DNA from: a virus | Taxonomy: Duplodnaviria > Heunggongvirae > Uroviricota > Caudoviricetes | Direction: 5' to 3' (one strand) | Length of the DNA: 10,087 nucleotides | IMG/VR virus record: IMGVR_UViG_2737471839_000018 | Coordinates: 1-10,087 of that record | Shown: piece by piece, positions 1-4,859 of the stretch | Numbering within the stretch: position 1 is the stretch's first letter | How the letters are laid out: every line of letters begins with the position of its first letter | Notes under the pieces: model-generated | What the model was told of the DNA's origin: nothing | Seen by the model: the letters and a program-made list of their open reading frames with translations, nothing else | Database searches by the model: none | Translations under genes and position numbers: made by a program

Positions 1-251
1 GGTCATGGCCTCCATAGTGATGGCGGGTCCTCCTTGTGGGGTGCCCTGCCACGGGGCGGGAGCATCGCGGAAAAAGGCTAGTTTTTGCATTTTTATTCGT
101 CATCACCACCAATGCAATATATTGATATGACTTGATGTTTTATTTTTCGGTGTCGATTTCGATTGTTTTTTGTTCATCACTGACGCATAACGCCCACCAG
201 CGCAACGCTGAAAGCCAGTCAGTAAACTGGCTTCGGTCATTGTGCACTACG

Positions 252-794
252 TTACTTGTCTTTATCCGGCTGAAACTTATCAGGCACATTTCCGGTAGTT
301 TCCATCAGATAATCGGACAGCATTCGCGGGATGTTTTCATCAAGTTTTGTGCATGCGTTACAGGCTCTGACAACTTCTTTTTTCAGGCCATCCAGCATGG
401 CGGGGGTCATCTGTGGGAAGCTCCTTTGCATAGTAAGCGGCAGGCTGCCCATGATTGAAGAAATCTGACTCGCCAGTTTTGAAAGCGCATATATACAAAA
501 TTCCGTACTAATCACATCGCCGCGTTCGCTCTCGTTTTTAAGCTCCTGCGCCTCCGCCTGCGCTGTCAGCAATCTGATCCTGACTCGCAAAAGCTCATCA
601 TTATCAATCTCTCCTTTGTCGTTTGTAAGCTGGTTAATTGCATTGTTAACCCTATTGTCTATCACGCTGGCAACATCATAAAACGCCTCACGGCCTTTAC
701 GCTCAACGGGAGTCACTCCCCACTTGTCGAATGCTGTAGCACTTACCCGGCAGCTTTGCGCCATGGTTTTTTTGTTCATCAGGTGCGATTTCAT
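252..794 (-). CDS. Small terminase subunit, lambda Nu1-like (TerS)
   Basis: Translation has the segment RLLTAQAEAQELKNESERGDVISTEFCIYALSKLASQISSIMGSLPLTMQRSFP...KLDENIPRMLSDYLMETTG, which matches lambda Nu1 as I recall it (RLTRAQADAQELKN...AFCTFVLSRIAGEIASILDGLPLSVQRRFP...LDELIPGLLSEYIEQSG). The N-terminus (NKKTMAQSCRVSATAFDKWGVTPV) resembles the Nu1 winged-HTH region. The ORF-track start at 797 is TTG; ATG codons are at 794 and 779, and 779 (MNKK...) aligns best with Nu1 MEVNKK. Stop TAA at 252-254. Confidence 0.85.
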   Translation of the reverse strand: MKSHLMNKKTMAQSCRVSATAFDKWGVTPVERKGREAFYDVASVIDNRVNNAINQLTNDKGEIDNDELLRVRIRLLTAQAEAQELKNESERGDVISTEFCIYALSKLASQISSIMGSLPLTMQRSFPQMTPAMLDGLKKEVVRACNACTKLDENIPRMLSDYLMETTGNVPDKFQPDKDK

Positions 795-821
795 CAATAT
801 CCCAACTTGGTCAAGGTTTCA

Positions 822-896
822 GGTTGGTGTGTTGGTGTTATCTTTCCCTTTTTATTCATGGAGATAGAGCAAACAACAAAACCACCACCACCACCC
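822..896. repeat. Candidate cosB-like repeats between cosN and the terS start: tandem GGTTGGTGT/GTTGGTGTT (822-839) and (ACC)5 tract (881-896)
   Basis: Direct repeats seen in the sequence at the position where lambda carries its R-sites and IHF site. The sequence is unlike the lambda cosB R-sites as I remember them. Function is inferred. Confidence 0.3.
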
Positions 897-927
897 TGAA
901 AAAGCTCATAAATAGCGAAAAACCGCG

Positions 928-939
928 AGGTCGCCGCCC
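928..939 (-). other. Lambda-type cohesive end site cosN (12-nt overhang sequence)
   Basis: Plus strand 928-939 reads AGGTCGCCGCCC, the lambda right-end cohesive sequence. The minus strand reads GTTACG GGGCGGCGACCT CGCGGTTTTTCGCTATTTATGA, nearly identical to the lambda left end for about 35 nt, then diverges. Orientation is cosN, then cosB, then terS, as in lambda. Confidence 0.8.
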
Positions 940-971
940 CGTAACAGGTCCATATGCCGGAAAGGACCCGC

Positions 972-997
972 AAAAAAGCCGGATTTCTCCGGCCTTT
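972..997 (-). terminator. Rho-independent terminator ending the capsid operon (hairpin also usable from the plus strand)
   Basis: Stem GCCGGA (978-983), loop TTTC, stem TCCGGC (988-993). Flanked by A6 on plus (T6 on minus) and by CTTTTCT on plus. Sits immediately after the stop of the 137-aa gene at 1000. Confidence 0.7.
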
Positions 998-999
998 TC

Positions 1000-1413
1000 T
1001 CAGATGGTTTTCAGTATGCGATCGATGTCGCCGTCATCGCCCGGGTTTCTGCCATCGTATGCCATGCCAGCTGATACGGCTTGTGGGCTGTGCATGTCCA
1101 TAAAGTTTTCAAAGGCTGCGGTAAGCTCTGGTGCAACCTTCGGGCGTTCCTGCTCTATGGTCATGTTCAGGATGTTTTTAGCCGTATCAACATCAATACA
1201 AGGCACGTTTGCCATTGCACGTAACAGCGGCTGATAGTCGTCAGATTCATGAAGCGACATAATCGCATCAGCGCGCGGCTTGTCCTGTTCTTCCAGTTTG
1301 TTAAGTTGATATATAGCTTCGTAGGTTGATAGACATCTGTCAGCCATTGCCCGCGCTTCGGCTTTAAATTTACTCGCCAGCGGTAGCGCCATGATACTTT
1401 CATTCGTTGCCAT
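1000..1413 (-). CDS. Hypothetical protein (137 aa), last gene of the capsid operon
   Basis: ATG at 1413-1411 preceded by CAGGGGGAACG (SD-like). Follows the D-like gene by 12 nt. Acidic C-terminal region. No family recognised. Confidence 0.65.
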   Translation of the reverse strand: MATNESIMALPLASKFKAEARAMADRCLSTYEAIYQLNKLEEQDKPRADAIMSLHESDDYQPLLRAMANVPCIDVDTAKNILNMTIEQERPKVAPELTAAFENFMDMHSPQAVSAGMAYDGRNPGDDGDIDRILKTI

Positions 1414-1425
1414 CGTTCCCCCTGC

Positions 1426-1761
1426 TTATCGCGCCAGCGGCTGAACGGATACACCAGAACCCGCAAAGGCGGCACATTTTTTCGCGTCGGTGTCGACGCT
1501 CTCAGGCCAGTTAACGGCGGCAATATTGAATATCCCCGTCTTGTAACACTGTGCTGATTTCTGCGTTGACGTGTCCACGGGATACGCCGTCAGATAAACA
1601 GCCTTGCCAGATTCCTGACCATCCCACGGCTTAAATTCGCCATTGTCCGCCAGCATCAGCGGGGTAAATTCCTGAATAACGCCAGCATCAGCGGCAAAAT
1701 GTACCAGCGTCGTGGCGACCTGCTGACTGCCTGCAAATAACTCAATGTATGGAGTGTCCAT
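1426..1761 (-). CDS. Head decoration protein, lambda gpD-like
   Basis: 111 aa. Motifs TPLMLA, WDG, YKTGIF, WPESVDTDAKKCAAFAGSGVSV parallel lambda gpD ([37 protein letters not shown]) as recalled. ATG at 1761 with a GGGGGA SD. Confidence 0.85.
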   Translation of the reverse strand: MDTPYIELFAGSQQVATTLVHFAADAGVIQEFTPLMLADNGEFKPWDGQESGKAVYLTAYPVDTSTQKSAQCYKTGIFNIAAVNWPESVDTDAKKCAAFAGSGVSVQPLAR

Positions 1762-1772
1762 AGAATCCCCCG

Positions 1773-2828
1773 TTAACCAATTTTGACGGTAACAAATTTG
1801 CGAATATCTGCCGGAACAGGCTGCGGTGCGCTGTGCGTCTGCACGTACTCAATCGCCGGATCGCCGTCCTCAATCCAGTTTTTCGGGTAAAACATGTTTT
1901 GCGTTGCGCCCGTTCTGACCGCTTCCTGATCCATAATCGCACCATAGGCCACCAGCCCTTTATTGTTGGTGTTGCCCAGGACCAGCAAATCAGGCTCAAG
2001 GAAATATTTTTCGGTGCCGTCGCTGTCAGTGTATTTGCCGGAATAGACGATAAGGGCAATATCGCCCAGATATCCTTTAAAGCTCACCACTTCGCCCAGG
2101 TTTTTACAGGCCAGCTCTGCGGCGGACTCTGAACCACGGGAAAGATCGTACAGTTCGCGGAATTTTTTAAAGCTGCGTAATGTTCGCCATACCTCAGCGC
2201 CCATGATCATGACGTTGGCGGGGCAACCTGCTTGATCCGCATAAAGCTCGATATCATAAATTGGATCGTGGGTTTCTTTGTCCTGCTCGGACCATTTACG
2301 GCCTTTGGCCTGCTCTATGATGTTTTTTTCCGGTATCTTCCAGTCGATTTCATAGCGTTCTATGCCCTCGCCCTCAATGATGTTTTTTCCGGTCGTTACC
2401 GCATTCACCGCCAGCCATTCCACGCGCGCTTTAATCGCGTTTATCTGGCGGCGCATGTTGCCAGTAATCAGGCGCATACGGCGATAGGTTGGGTCATTAA
2501 GCTGTGCCGGATCTTCTGCAGCCATACGCATGATGGTTTTCGTTGGATCGATTTCGTGCTTCGGCTTCATGTATCCAGGTTTAATCGTGCTGGTTTCGTA
2601 CCCTTTATCGCGCTGGACCTGACTACCCACCATAGGCGAACAAAACGCCGACATCGTAACCTCTTCAATGTCCAGGGTGTCCAGCATGATGTTTTGGGTG
2701 TTGAATGTCGCCACGTTCGGGAAAAACAGCGTGGTAAACAGCGGACTGAATTTAAATTCCGCAATATCCCCGCGATTCAGGTACGCGAAAAGCTGGTTAG
2801 TGTTAAGTGCCGTTGCTTTGCCTGCCAT
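1773..2828 (-). CDS. Major capsid protein, lambda gpE family
   Basis: 351 aa. Shares many blocks with lambda gpE: FKFSPLF..LFF, PGYMKPKHEIDP, DPAQLNDPTYRRMR, RGSESAAELACKNLGEVVSFKGYLGDIALIVYSG, VLGNTNNKGL.AYG, YPKNWIEDGDPA. ATG at 2828 with SD GGAGGTG. TAATG overlap with the upstream gene. Confidence 0.93.
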   Translation of the reverse strand: MAGKATALNTNQLFAYLNRGDIAEFKFSPLFTTLFFPNVATFNTQNIMLDTLDIEEVTMSAFCSPMVGSQVQRDKGYETSTIKPGYMKPKHEIDPTKTIMRMAAEDPAQLNDPTYRRMRLITGNMRRQINAIKARVEWLAVNAVTTGKNIIEGEGIERYEIDWKIPEKNIIEQAKGRKWSEQDKETHDPIYDIELYADQAGCPANVMIMGAEVWRTLRSFKKFRELYDLSRGSESAAELACKNLGEVVSFKGYLGDIALIVYSGKYTDSDGTEKYFLEPDLLVLGNTNNKGLVAYGAIMDQEAVRTGATQNMFYPKNWIEDGDPAIEYVQTHSAPQPVPADIRKFVTVKIG

Positions 2829-3034
2829 TATTCACCTCCATGCGTCTGATTCATGCCCAGCGCCGCGCGTAAATAGGCGCGGACCTGCCAGCCTGTTGAC
2901 GGCTCAACCATTGCCAGCGGATCAAGTCCTGCCTCAATGCCTGCTTTTACGTTCTGCTGGTGGCGTTCCTTGAGCGCCTTCACGATGTCGGGGCTTATGT
3001 ACACCGAAACACCGCCTTTTTTCTCTTCAGCCAT
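2828..3034 (-). CDS. Hypothetical small protein (68 aa), first gene of the capsid operon
   Basis: ATG at 3034 with SD AGAGGAA upstream. Its stop TAA overlaps the ATG of the capsid gene (translational coupling). No family recognised. Confidence 0.6.
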   Translation of the reverse strand: MAEEKKGGVSVYISPDIVKALKERHQQNVKAGIEAGLDPLAMVEPSTGWQVRAYLRAALGMNQTHGGE

Positions 3035-3062
3035 AGTAAGAAATTCCTCTTCGACTTAAAAA

Positions 3063-3130
3063 ATCATAACTGGATGTTCATCCAGTTATGATTATAATCA
3101 TGATTGCATTTTGTGCAATGGTATTGAGTT
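3063..3130 (-). promoter_or_regulatory. Putative capsid-operon promoter/operator: 30-bp perfect palindrome plus palindromic ATTATAAT (-10-like) and a second dyad ATTGCA-N5-TGCAAT
   Basis: ATCATAACTGGATG-TT-CATCCAGTTATGAT at 3063-3092 (14-bp arms). ATTATAAT at 3091-3098 reads as TATAAT on either strand. ATTGCATTTTGTGCAAT at 3104-3120. All lie 30-100 bp upstream of the operon ATG at 3034. The -35 is weak. Confidence 0.45.
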
Positions 3131-3199
3131 GTGTTGCAAATTATGAAATTATTATCCCAATCATGTGTGTCAGTGCACCAAAAAGCCTCATATGCAAAA

Positions 3200-3237
3200 G
3201 CCCGATAAGAACCCTCTGACCTTATCGGGCTTTTTTT
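3200..3237 (+). terminator. Rho-independent terminator oriented for plus-strand transcription
   Basis: GCCCGATAAG (3200-3209), 11-nt loop, CTTATCGGGC (3221-3230), followed by T7 (3231-3237). Confidence 0.55.
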
Positions 3238-3242
3238 GGGGC

Positions 3243-3265
3243 AAAAAAGCCGGATTGCTCCGGCT
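3243..3265 (-). terminator. Rho-independent terminator for the 74-aa gene
   Basis: AGCCGGA-TTGC-TCCGGCT hairpin (3248-3265) preceded on plus by A6, which is T6 after the stem on minus. Same core as the hairpins at 978-993 and 3611-3628. Confidence 0.65.
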
Positions 3266-3284
3266 ATGTGTGCTGTGTGCTGGC

Positions 3285-3509
3285 TCAGTCTCTGATCTCT
3301 TTCAGAAATTCTATCAATGCATCTATCTGTTCAGGATTTACCGCCAGCATTTCACCGGATAGCGCACATCTGACAAATCCATGCCGATCCTTTTCAATCA
3401 ACGCGCCCGTTTCCAGGAATGCGCGGTAATCAGTGATGTTCATCGTCTCCATGTTGTCAGCATGGTATTTATCACGCTGTTTTAATATCTCATCAAATTT
3501 CATCGGCAT
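3285..3509 (-). CDS. Hypothetical small protein (74 aa)
   Basis: Chosen start is ATG at 3509 (MPMKFDEIL...) with strong SD CAGAGGAAAAAACA. The longer ORF-track start at 3587 has no SD and abuts the upstream terminator. Monocistronic between two terminators. Confidence 0.6.
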   Translation of the reverse strand: MPMKFDEILKQRDKYHADNMETMNITDYRAFLETGALIEKDRHGFVRCALSGEMLAVNPEQIDALIEFLKEIRD

Positions 3510-3604
3510 TGTTTTTTCCTCTGTTGTGTCTGTTTGTTTCAGATAGTAACTATGCCGGACCGTGACGAAAACCCGGTAATGCGCCATACCGTTTCAACTG
3601 GTGC

Positions 3605-3628
3605 AAAAAAAGCCGGATTTCTCCGGCT
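3605..3628 (-). terminator. Rho-independent terminator for the PerC-like gene
   Basis: A7 (plus 3605-3611), then AGCCGGA-TTTC-TCCGGCT (3611-3628). On the minus strand the stem is followed by T7. Confidence 0.7.
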
Positions 3629-3634
3629 GTGTGA

Positions 3635-3907
3635 TTAGCTGTACTGGTAATTGCGCCATATATCATCACCAGCACCATCCATACCCATTTCGGCATAAGT
3701 GCGATCGACTGCCTTTTTCAGGTCTCCGAAATTATCCGGCGGCTCCGGTGCCCTCTGTGCCTTCCTTGAACATTCCAGCCGTCGCATCGTGATGTGATGC
3801 CGTTCCTTGTCTGTCTCCACCAGCTGCATGACTTCACCCCATCGCGCCGCCGCCCTCCGGTAAAAGCCTTTCGCCTCCAGTTCCTCCGCTATGCGGTCAT
3901 GTACCAT
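3635..3907 (-). CDS. PerC-family-like transcriptional regulator (90 aa)
   Basis: N-terminal AEELEAKGFYRRAAARWGEVMQ resembles the PerC family signature as I recall it (moderate certainty). ATG at 3907. The SD is a G10 homopolymer. Confidence 0.6.
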   Translation of the reverse strand: MVHDRIAEELEAKGFYRRAAARWGEVMQLVETDKERHHITMRRLECSRKAQRAPEPPDNFGDLKKAVDRTYAEMGMDGAGDDIWRNYQYS

Positions 3908-3909
3908 CG

Positions 3910-3919
3910 CCCCCCCCCC
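3910..3919. repeat. Homopolymeric tract C10 (G10 on the coding strand) between the ssb stop and the PerC-like start
   Basis: Counted directly: C at 3910-3919. Minus strand reads TGA-GGGGGGGGGG-CG-ATG. Confidence 0.9.
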
Positions 3920-4330
3920 TCAGAACGGAATATCATCACCGTAAGGGTCATCGCCTCCAGCTGGTGGCTGATTACCCTGTGTGCTTGTGGTCTTGCGTCG
4001 GCTCCCGCCAGGACGGGCAGCACTGGCACTGATTACACTGTCTGCGATAACCTGATAACCCTGCCGCGTTTCCCCGTTCTGTCCGGTCCACTGGCTAACC
4101 TGTATCGTGCCGGATACGCTGGCAACATCGCCTTTTTGATGTTTAGCCAGGTAGTCGGCCTGCTTGCCAAATGCGATGACCGACAGCCATAACGTCGCCT
4201 GTCCGTCCTGTGCCTGGCTGCATGGCAGCGATACCGCCATACGAGCCAGCGTCATTGGTGTGCCCTTGCTGGTCTGTTTTACCTGCGGGTCGTCCACCAG
4301 CCGCCCGTAAGCGGCTATCTGTGCTGTCAT
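3920..4330 (-). CDS. ssb: Single-stranded DNA-binding protein (SSB)
   Basis: 136 aa. OB-fold-like blocks (GRLVDDPQ, WLSVIAFGKQA, QKGD, WTGQNGETR), a Gly/Pro/Gln-rich linker, and a C-terminal acidic tail ending DDIPF. ATGA overlap with the upstream gene. Confidence 0.85.
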   Translation of the reverse strand: MTAQIAAYGRLVDDPQVKQTSKGTPMTLARMAVSLPCSQAQDGQATLWLSVIAFGKQADYLAKHQKGDVASVSGTIQVSQWTGQNGETRQGYQVIADSVISASAARPGGSRRKTTSTQGNQPPAGGDDPYGDDIPF

Positions 4331-4572
4331 GATTCCACCTCTCCGGTTTTAACGTTGATGGTTGTTACCTGTTCCGCTTCGGCAATCTCCCGTTCTGTCA
4401 GCGTGGCAAAGTTTGCCGCCGTCGTGGTCATGAATGCGCTTATCAGTTCGGGATGTGCTTTCGCGTATCCTTCCCCGGCGTTGCGGTCGATGATTTTTAT
4501 CGCCACCCTCAGCCAGTGTTCTGTCAAATCAAGGGCGTGAGATTGTGGTTTTTTGGCGTGCTTCGTTGTCAC
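4327..4572 (-). CDS. Hypothetical protein (81 aa), coupled to ssb
   Basis: Only an in-frame GTG start at 4572, with GAGGT about 8 nt upstream. Stop overlaps the ssb ATG. Lies directly downstream of the iteron region. Confidence 0.5.
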   Translation of the reverse strand: MTTKHAKKPQSHALDLTEHWLRVAIKIIDRNAGEGYAKAHPELISAFMTTTAANFATLTEREIAEAEQVTTINVKTGEVES

Positions 4573-4620
4573 AGGCTTTACCTCACAGCAATAAAATAAA
4601 ATTTTTGCATTTCAACCCTT

Positions 4621-4846
4621 CACCTGTTCACCTTTTGCAATTTTCCCTTTTTATTCATAATGTTAAGGGGTGAACAGTTTCACAAAAACTATTCACCAAC
4701 TGTTCACCACTGTTCACCCTTAAAGCTCAATAAAGAATCAAAAAGGTGAACAGTGAATAGTTTGGTGAACAGTTCATAAATAACTGCTCACCCTATAATA
4801 TACTGATATAAAAGACATTTATTGCAGGGTGAACAGTGGTGAACAG
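4621..4846. repeat. Iteron cluster / putative origin of replication (TGTTCACC octamers in both orientations in an AT-rich context)
   Basis: Perfect TGTTCACC at 4625-4632, 4701-4708, 4711-4718. Perfect reverse GGTGAACA at 4669-4676, 4745-4752, 4764-4771, 4828-4835, 4838-4845. Degenerate copies near 4692, 4754 and 4785. To my recollection this octamer is the P4 alpha-binding type I iteron of ori/crr. Confidence 0.75.
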
Positions 4847-4859
4847 TTATTCCATAAGT

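Follow-up and report, generated by a model that had tools for sequence, protein, structure and literature searches.

The cassette and its genes

The DNA analysed here is a stretch of 10,087 bases (hereafter the window), positions 1 to 10,087 of the IMG/VR virus record IMGVR_UViG_2737471839_000018 (Caudoviricetes). All coordinates refer to this window, and nearly all of its transcription is on the minus strand. The element that it holds is, with near certainty, a classical Gram-negative phage-inducible chromosomal island (PICI) of the EcCICFT073 family, that is, a satellite of Escherichia coli phages. Read along the minus strand, the order is int, alpA, primase, single-stranded DNA-binding protein (SSB), PerC, orf68, E, D, orf137, terminator, cosQ/cosN and terS (Table 1). 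We focus on the cassette formed by orf68, E, D and orf137.

Table 1. Features of the island within the window, ordered from the integrase to the small terminase gene
Feature	Position	Strand	Remarks
Tyrosine integrase	8849..10087	-	Pfam Phage_integrase and Arm-DNA-bind_3; island end adjoining cspD
AlpA-family regulator	8223..8432	-	Pfam Phage_AlpA, 2.1e-17; 69 aa as called in contigs L005-L008
Primase/replicase	4860..6692	-	D5_N, DUF5906, Pox_D5; phrog_864 at 1.6e-192
Predicted control region upstream of the cassette	3062..3265	-	Terminator scan and sequence reading
orf68	2828..3034	-	Stop overlaps the E start codon (ATGA); phrog_3255 (unknown function), 2.8e-36
E, lambda gpE-family major capsid protein homolog, 351 aa	1773..2828	-	Ortholog of c1499 / PDB 3BQW
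D, gpD/SHP-family head decoration protein homolog, 111 aa	1426..1761	-	c1500 ortholog
orf137, homolog of the lambda Nu3/gpC C-terminal domain, 137 aa	1000..1413	-	Directly downstream of D; c1501 ortholog
Intrinsic terminator closing the cassette	978..993	-	Hairpin GCCGGAGAAATCCGGC, then T run
cosQ, GGGTCCT	963..969	-	Inside a 14-nt block identical to the lambda right end
cosN, GGGCGGCGACCT plus flank	923..939	-	cosN itself 939-928; 33/34 bases as in the lambda left end
Element-specific cosB-like region, cosN to terS	798..922	-	Includes a (GGT)5 run
Nu1-type small terminase TerS, 180 aa	252..794	-	Pfam Phage_Nu1, 3.4e-21; phrog_57, 4e-50

The E product belongs to the lambda gpE family (PF03864, HK97 fold), as established by a full-length profile match and a solved homologous structure. 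Profile matches are at 1.6e-51 to Pfam Phage_cap_E and at 1e-107 to phrog_29, the PHROG family of major head proteins. Among PDB entries, it matches 3BQW at 5e-234 and the lambda gpE structure 7VI9 at 6.6e-83. The former, nearly identical to the E product, is a structural-genomics entry titled 'Putative capsid protein of prophage', whose crystal structure has been available since the late 2000s. Identity to lambda gpE is 44% over 328 aa, and the domain lengths are the same. Because this full-length alignment contains just two gaps of one residue each, the gpE fold architecture is expected. The D product matches Pfam HDPD (PF02924) at 2.1e-18, with 67 bits against a cut-off of 29.1, and phrog_49 at 5e-28. 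It is also similar to SHP of phage 21 (1TD0, 2.6e-14) and to lambda gpD (4e-10, 38% identity). NCBIfam gave no match for any protein of the cassette. The direction of transcription places E before D, while lambda has the order Nu3-D-E. An earlier reading of this DNA, based on the sequence only, had named a gpE-like and a gpD-like gene in the reverse of the lambda order. Both calls, as well as the order, are solid and far beyond chance.

The same sequence-only reading described an element with just shell and decoration proteins, devoid of scaffold and with nothing but small unknown genes as neighbours. This description has to be corrected, since D is directly followed by a gene for a homolog of the C-terminal domain of Nu3/gpC, and then by cosQ/cosN and a Nu1-type terS. 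The orf137 protein matches phrog_1999 at 5e-63 and, at 2e-8, the extreme C-terminus (positions 493-567 of 583) of the protease family phrog_53. Reciprocally, residues 117-200 of lambda Nu3 match phrog_1999, the orf137 family, at 2.7e-26. In a word-indexed homology search with orf137, all the proteins found were from E. coli, with identities of 63% or more, and HMMER added two informative distant relatives. P0041, a 195-aa relative found by exhaustive HMMER search, carries three copies of the Nu3 C-terminal motif. It matches both phrog_1999 and phrog_53 strongly and aligns with Nu3 at 2e-16, thus bridging both families. In the alignment, orf137 and Nu3 both have a repeat of the form I-M-x-L...A-x-x-L, a block F-x-x-(F/L)-M...P-x-x-x-x-A-G and a hydrophobic tail at the C-terminus. 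Moreover, orf137 is acidic like Nu3 (pI 4.6 and 4.5, respectively). Direct pairwise BLAST against gpC/Nu3 gave only weak similarity (E=0.04-0.2), so that the case for a scaffold domain is carried by the profile matches.

The protein does not contain the N-terminal two-thirds of Nu3, and its gene stands alone instead of being nested in an S49 protease gene; no S49 domain was found in the window. From these profiles we conclude that orf137 encodes a stand-alone homolog of the lambda scaffold C-terminal domain, and not a Nu3 ortholog. It is thus a candidate mini-scaffold. RefSeq labels the protein 'phage head-tail connector protein', a name without support, since among lambda proteins it is most similar to C/Nu3 and shows no resemblance to W, FI or FII. 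Within the literature searched, we found no paper that assigns c1501 to the family of Nu3 or accounts for what the cassette does.

The first gene of the cassette, orf68, also precedes E in CFT073 and in PKF11. As lambda W is likewise 68 aa long, we considered orf68 as a gpW homolog, and rejected this since no similarity to W or to other head proteins was detected.

The island, its packaging signals and its control region

The assignment to the PICIs is based on the family matches, on the gene-for-gene layout of CFT073, on the chromosomal genes at both sides together with 18-bp repeats, and on the published PICI definitions (PMC6092414, PMC10085698). The sequence-only reading had already seen a satellite here, and the integrase, AlpA, D5-type primase, SSB and PerC genes bear it out. 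Profiles further identified a DUF4222 protein, the SSB and the PerC-like regulator. Among the defining features of PICIs, the island shows a terminal integrase, AlpA, a primase-replicase and co-oriented genes. A capsid-morphogenesis gene, terS and a cos site lie downstream of the replication module, the size is in the 10-15 kb range, and the att site has direct repeats. No tRNA gene that could be the integration target was found in the window.

The true limits of the island were obtained from two contigs of public E. coli assemblies (L006 and L007), found via the exact capsid protein; both contain all 10,087 bases of the window at 100% identity. In them the island spans about 11.3 kb between 18-bp direct repeats, at the site macB-cspD / clpS-clpA. 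Beyond terS, at the left edge of the window, there is one 94-aa open reading frame (ORF) and then the island ends. The last part, about 0.9 kb from this ORF to the right direct repeat (L006 13113-14011), contains no convincing ORF. The search for head genes beyond the left edge, which the sequence-only reading had proposed, therefore came to clpS/clpA with nothing of the kind in between.

Neither portal, prohead protease nor large terminase (TerL) was found inside or beside the island, in the window and the L006/L007 flanks. The absence of portal and protease noticed before thus holds for the true flanks and extends to the large terminase. The same three genes are missing beside the cassette in E. 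coli PKF11, GB089 and CFT073 and in four other enterobacterial genera. These other-genus loci came from an alignment-based rescan of genome contigs, which gave four; a single-protein scan had given none. Homologs of lambda A, B, the C protease, W, FI and FII were not found in the island, and tail and lysis genes are also absent.

Packaging signals of lambda type follow the cassette. cosQ and cosN are separated by 30 nt, as in lambda, and cosN occurs in a single copy in the window, while EcCICFT073 has two. Immediately past cosN the cosB-like region diverges from both lambda and CFT073, with the boundary of similarity to CFT073 at 898. In this private region, positions 880-897 (minus strand) read as the (GGT)5 run followed by GTTTTGTTGTTTG, a stretch that may hold TerS binding elements. 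TerS is a full-length homolog of lambda Nu1 (34% identity), with a well-conserved C-terminal half; in lambda this half of Nu1 binds gpA (cited in PMC6739421). Its gene occupies the place of rppA (c1503) in EcCICFT073, where CFT073 has a 144-aa gene. An Rpp protein (RppA/B/C, 144-153 aa; PDB 6HLK and 6HN7) was rejected as its identity, because no PDB match was obtained and the Nu1 homology is full-length.

Upstream of orf68, terminator hairpins lie at 3265-3248 and 3230-3200. About 240 nt upstream of this gene are 90-95% conserved among three islands, which is above the synonymous sites of the adjacent genes. A consensus promoter scan returned no minus-strand promoter upstream of the cassette; by eye, a candidate promoter can be proposed there, TTGCAC (3118-3113) and TATAAT (3096-3091) with a 16-nt spacer, on the minus strand. 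Its -10 box overlaps the left arm of a palindrome/terminator with a 14-bp stem (3093-3062). Transcripts started at the candidate promoter would not contain the full hairpin, whereas those coming through from upstream would be terminated there. It is also conceivable that the palindrome serves as operator. A nearly identical hairpin, GCCGGAG(A/C)AATCCGGC plus T run, is present at three sites (3611-3628, 3248-3265 and 978-993). These lie after PerC, orf100 and orf137, and they bracket the capsid cassette.

One region of the window is annotated inconsistently. Positions 7293-8213 contain a 306-aa minus-strand ORF that is called as a gene in several assemblies; it matches no family, and its composition is odd. 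The GC skew of the region is positive, small ORFs lie on its plus strand, and L007 annotates small genes there instead; the plus-strand ORF at 7696-7875 corresponds in position to a YlcI/YnfO-family gene annotated in GB089. The 306-aa ORF is probably spurious.

Selection, distribution and relation to known systems

Ratios of nonsynonymous to synonymous divergence (dN/dS) were obtained from the alleles of the window, PKF11 and CFT073, at dS 0.1-0.29. They are 0.06-0.13 for E, 0.11-0.29 for D, 0.17-0.36 for orf137 and 0.10-0.20 for orf68. All four genes of the cassette are under purifying selection. Of 5,426 complete E. coli genomes, 598 carry the E allele and 593 carry orf137 (about 11%), which indicates that both genes are inherited together. 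A second allele group, found in GB089 and the four other genera, keeps the E-then-D order with an E 55% and a D 54% identical to those of the window group. E and D alleles thus co-vary between the groups. Within 50,697 phage records, the closest phage major capsid protein (MCP) is at most about 47% identical to the E product. Since no phage protein exceeds this value, we think that the capsid lineage is old and specific to satellites rather than freshly captured.

The island itself is a mosaic. Its ends, terS-cos (window positions 1-971) and SSB to int (4026-10087), share about 99% identity with the GB089 island (L002), which occupies the same cspD/clpS site, and the two terS genes do not differ by a single nucleotide. 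The segment between them, 972-4025, is replaced with respect to GB089 and carries the EcCICFT073-type cassette; positions 898-3283 show 94% DNA identity to EcCICFT073 (L004). One of the mosaic junctions falls inside cos, between cosQ/cosN and cosB. This swap, with a junction inside cos, indicates that the cassette moves as a unit.

The nearest relative is therefore well known. Gene lengths and order are those of EcCICFT073 (207, 1056, 336 and 414 nt), with the same cosQ/cosN and with identities of 97% for E, 97% for D and 93% for orf137. The two islands differ in that EcCICFT073 has RppA (c1503) after cos and two cosN, whereas the window has a Nu1-type TerS, one cosN and a different cosB; integrase and attachment site also differ. 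Fillol-Salom and coworkers described c1499 as capsid and c1500 as head decoration gene of this prototype PICI in 2018 (PMC6092414), whose supplement gives 137 aa for c1501. A major capsid gene was later reported in 21 of 29 reference Gram-negative PICIs and as not required for transfer (Mageeney et al. 2023, PMC10111431). In SatelliteFinder, the five core components of a PICI include 'capsid morphogenesis' and 'small terminase' (PMC10085698). The cassette is thus an instance of something already described. The arrangement that the sequence-only reading contrasted with lambda is not new; it is that of c1499-c1500-c1501. The distinct capsid-piracy strategy proposed in that reading likewise has precedents, in SaPIbov5 Ccm for a capsid homolog and in the capsid-forming PICIs (cf-PICIs) for full capsid autonomy.

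These precedents differ from the window island in instructive ways. SaPIbov5 is, like it, a cos-type satellite encoding an HK97-fold capsid homolog of the helper. Ccm demonstrably redirects the capsid size of the helper, whereas the E. coli ortholog of the window gene showed no size change and no requirement, in islands with a disrupted cassette. Moreover, the window MCP is accompanied by its own decoration and scaffold-domain genes, unlike Ccm. With the cf-PICI EcCIEDL933 the island shares the int/alpA/pri backbone and satellite-encoded capsid proteins. cf-PICIs encode portal, protease, head-tail connectors, HNH and TerL, whereas none of these was found in the window island or its flanks. Capsid and terS phylogenies separate PICIs from cf-PICIs (PMC10085698). 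SaPI1 CpmB and P4 Sid/Psu are also satellite-encoded factors of capsid assembly or decoration. As in CpmB, only the end of a helper-type scaffold is kept in orf137, which is an analogy only. There is no sequence relationship to CpmB or Sid/Psu, and size redirection by the window cassette is hypothetical. As to lambda itself, the homologous parts are E (44%), D (38%), the Nu3 C-domain, Nu1 (34%) and the identically spaced cosQ/cosN. The order is E-D-Nu3C-cos-Nu1 in the island and cos-Nu1-A-W-B-C/Nu3-D-E in lambda. The island has no A, W, B, FI or FII and no protease part of C, and its Nu3 is cut to the C-terminal domain.

PICIs embedded in their helper (11capE type, PMC10111431) are similar too, as they combine a PICI backbone with an own gpE-family gene followed by a D-like gene. 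Unlike them, the window island resides in the chromosomal cspD/clpS site and not in a prophage. We observed two such islands in Cedecea (L011, 1-13035) and Kosakonia (L013, 23-13301), PICIs with their own E-D inserted in the E gene of a lambdoid prophage. Helper C, D and the 5' part of E lie on one side, and the 3' part of E, FI and FII on the other. They represent the published helper-embedded configuration in two further genera. In both, the cassette is of the second allele group, where an AlpA-like third gene takes the place of the Nu3-like one.

A possible role in building helper-dependent shells

Taken as a whole, the explanation that we favour, somewhat better than even in our judgement, is that the cassette is a PICI capsid module whose products take part in building shells on portals of the helper. 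Its specific core, that E, D and orf137 of the PICI assemble lambda-type shells on these portals, we hold more tentatively, at a little less than even. That the cassette is a functional, matched shell set is suggested by the low dN/dS, the co-inheritance, the co-variation of E and D, the swapping as a unit and the satellite-specific lineage.

We hypothesize that induction of a lambdoid helper would trigger excision and replication of the island. TerS would bind its private cosB, and its Nu1-like C-terminal half would recruit the TerL of the helper to cut the lambda-type cosN. Portal, prohead protease, TerL and the head-completion, tail and lysis functions would all come from the helper. The capsid protein of the island would form a matched, co-inherited set with the decoration protein and the scaffold domain cognate to it, and this set would supplement or replace the shell proteins of the helper by assembling on helper portals. 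T=7 heads of lambda size would be filled by concatemers with about four copies of the island (4 x 11.3 = 45 kb). This filling is consistent with the phage-sized DNA published for EcCICFT073 and with the 10.6-11.3 kb islands of the family, about one quarter of a lambda headful. The contribution of the island proteins would be redundant in the laboratory with lambda, phi80 or CFT073 phage 4. An own shell would be useful when the capsid supply of the helper is limiting or blocked, as in the case of helper-embedded PICIs, which split the helper E gene.

Experimental evidence has to be considered here, since the tests proposed by the sequence-only reading were already carried out on the ortholog. 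Helper-induced excision, replication and high-frequency transfer are experimental for EcCICFT073 only (PMC6092414). In the same work, deletion of c1499 or c1500 neither restored lambda plating nor changed island transfer, and with lambda all packaged EcCICFT073 DNA was phage-sized. Interference was mapped to c1503 (RppA) in 2019 (PMC6739421). These results argue against an obligatory role and against a role in making small capsids, though the islands employed were disrupted within the cassette. Indeed, both marked derivatives of EcCICFT073 have the marker inside it. In c1501::tetA it lies within the Nu3-like gene (its exact place is deduced from this notation), and in c1499::cat it stands in place of the capsid gene. 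The tetA island was the one from which c1499 and c1500 were deleted, and the lysogen employed for DNA sizing necessarily carried a marked island. The published lack of phenotype thus comes from cassettes already disrupted, apparently none with all three genes intact.

Several observations weigh against shell building by the cassette. Islands with c1499::cat transfer well, better than those with c1501::tetA (PMC6092414), so that the helpers tested do not require the capsid protein. Post-ori genes of EcCICFT073 other than c1503 had no effect on lambda plating when expressed singly (PMC6739421). Three terminators precede the cassette, and its promoter is a predicted one. Without the N-terminal two-thirds of Nu3, orf137 may not be a scaffold at all. 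In the second allele group the third gene (L002 6996-7379; L010-L013) encodes an AlpA-type helix-turn-helix protein of 127-147 aa (PDB 8C3T, 1.6e-10) and not a Nu3-like one, so that the third position of the cassette is not fixed in function. Finally, the entry of the PICI proteins into particles is presumed.

The rival that we take most seriously, though we hold it to be unlikely, is a redirection of capsid size in the manner of Ccm or CpmB. PICI E, orf137 or both would co-assemble with helper gpE, or compete on it, and alter the curvature of the shell. The resulting heads would be so small that they hold a single 11.3-kb copy of the island and have no room for the 48-kb phage genome. The MCP homolog Ccm does so in SaPIbov5, PmCI172, also with an MCP homolog, makes small heads, and single gpE substitutions in lambda can give small heads (PMC12749128). 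That orf137 keeps only the C-terminal motif and tail of Nu3 resembles the way in which CpmB mimics the capsid-binding end of the scaffold. The phage-sized DNA and the knock-out results came, besides, from islands whose cassette was already broken (c1501::tetA or c1499::cat). Nevertheless, only phage-sized EcCICFT073 DNA was seen with lambda, and RppA is the protein to which interference was mapped. The islands cluster in size around one quarter of the lambda headful, the domain lengths of E are those of gpE, and expression of single genes did not inhibit lambda. A role outside the virion seems improbable as well. The proteins could be decoys or triggers for capsid-sensing host defences, poison subunits against lambdoid phages other than the helper, or they could regulate late functions of the helper. 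A cassette that is under purifying selection yet shows no transfer phenotype would suit such a role, and PICIs often carry anti-phage functions (PMC11364771). However, a co-inherited trio of capsid, decoration and scaffold genes beside cos and terS suits shell assembly and exceeds the needs of a decoy, and deletion of c1499 or c1500 did not relieve the interference with lambda.

Non-functional remnants of a lambdoid prophage ancestor would agree with the absence of phenotype in the only published knock-outs, but the selection data effectively refute them. dN/dS is far below 1, some 600 complete genomes as well as other genera have intact ORFs of the same length, both allele groups are retained in spite of their deep divergence, and the upstream control region is conserved. 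An ordinary phage head module, with portal and protease just outside the window, is excluded, because in L006/L007 the island is bounded by cspD/macB and clpS/clpA, and the E. coli and other-genus relatives likewise have no adjoining head genes.

The sequence-only reading had proposed that the satellite builds its own, possibly smaller, capsids. The phage-sized DNA packaged by the ortholog argues against a smaller size, and the deletions argue against a need for these genes in transfer (PMC6092414), although these islands were cassette-disrupted. It is tempting to speculate that an intact orf68-E-D-Nu3C cassette builds its own shells, either smaller and single-copy or helper-independent, on stolen helper portals, even if we rate this as rather doubtful. 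Such an ability could have been missed because each marked derivative that was tested (c1501::tetA and c1499::cat) had one gene of the cassette destroyed. If true, the cassette would represent an intermediate stage between capsid-stealing and capsid-forming PICIs.

In summary, about 11% of complete E. coli genomes keep this cassette under purifying selection. As c1501/orf137 is a scaffold-domain homolog, the satellite holds a matched set of shell, decoration and scaffold proteins rather than two stray genes. The published negative results are confounded, since the selection markers sat inside this very set. Classical PICIs may make a contribution to the heads in which they travel, or give them another shape.

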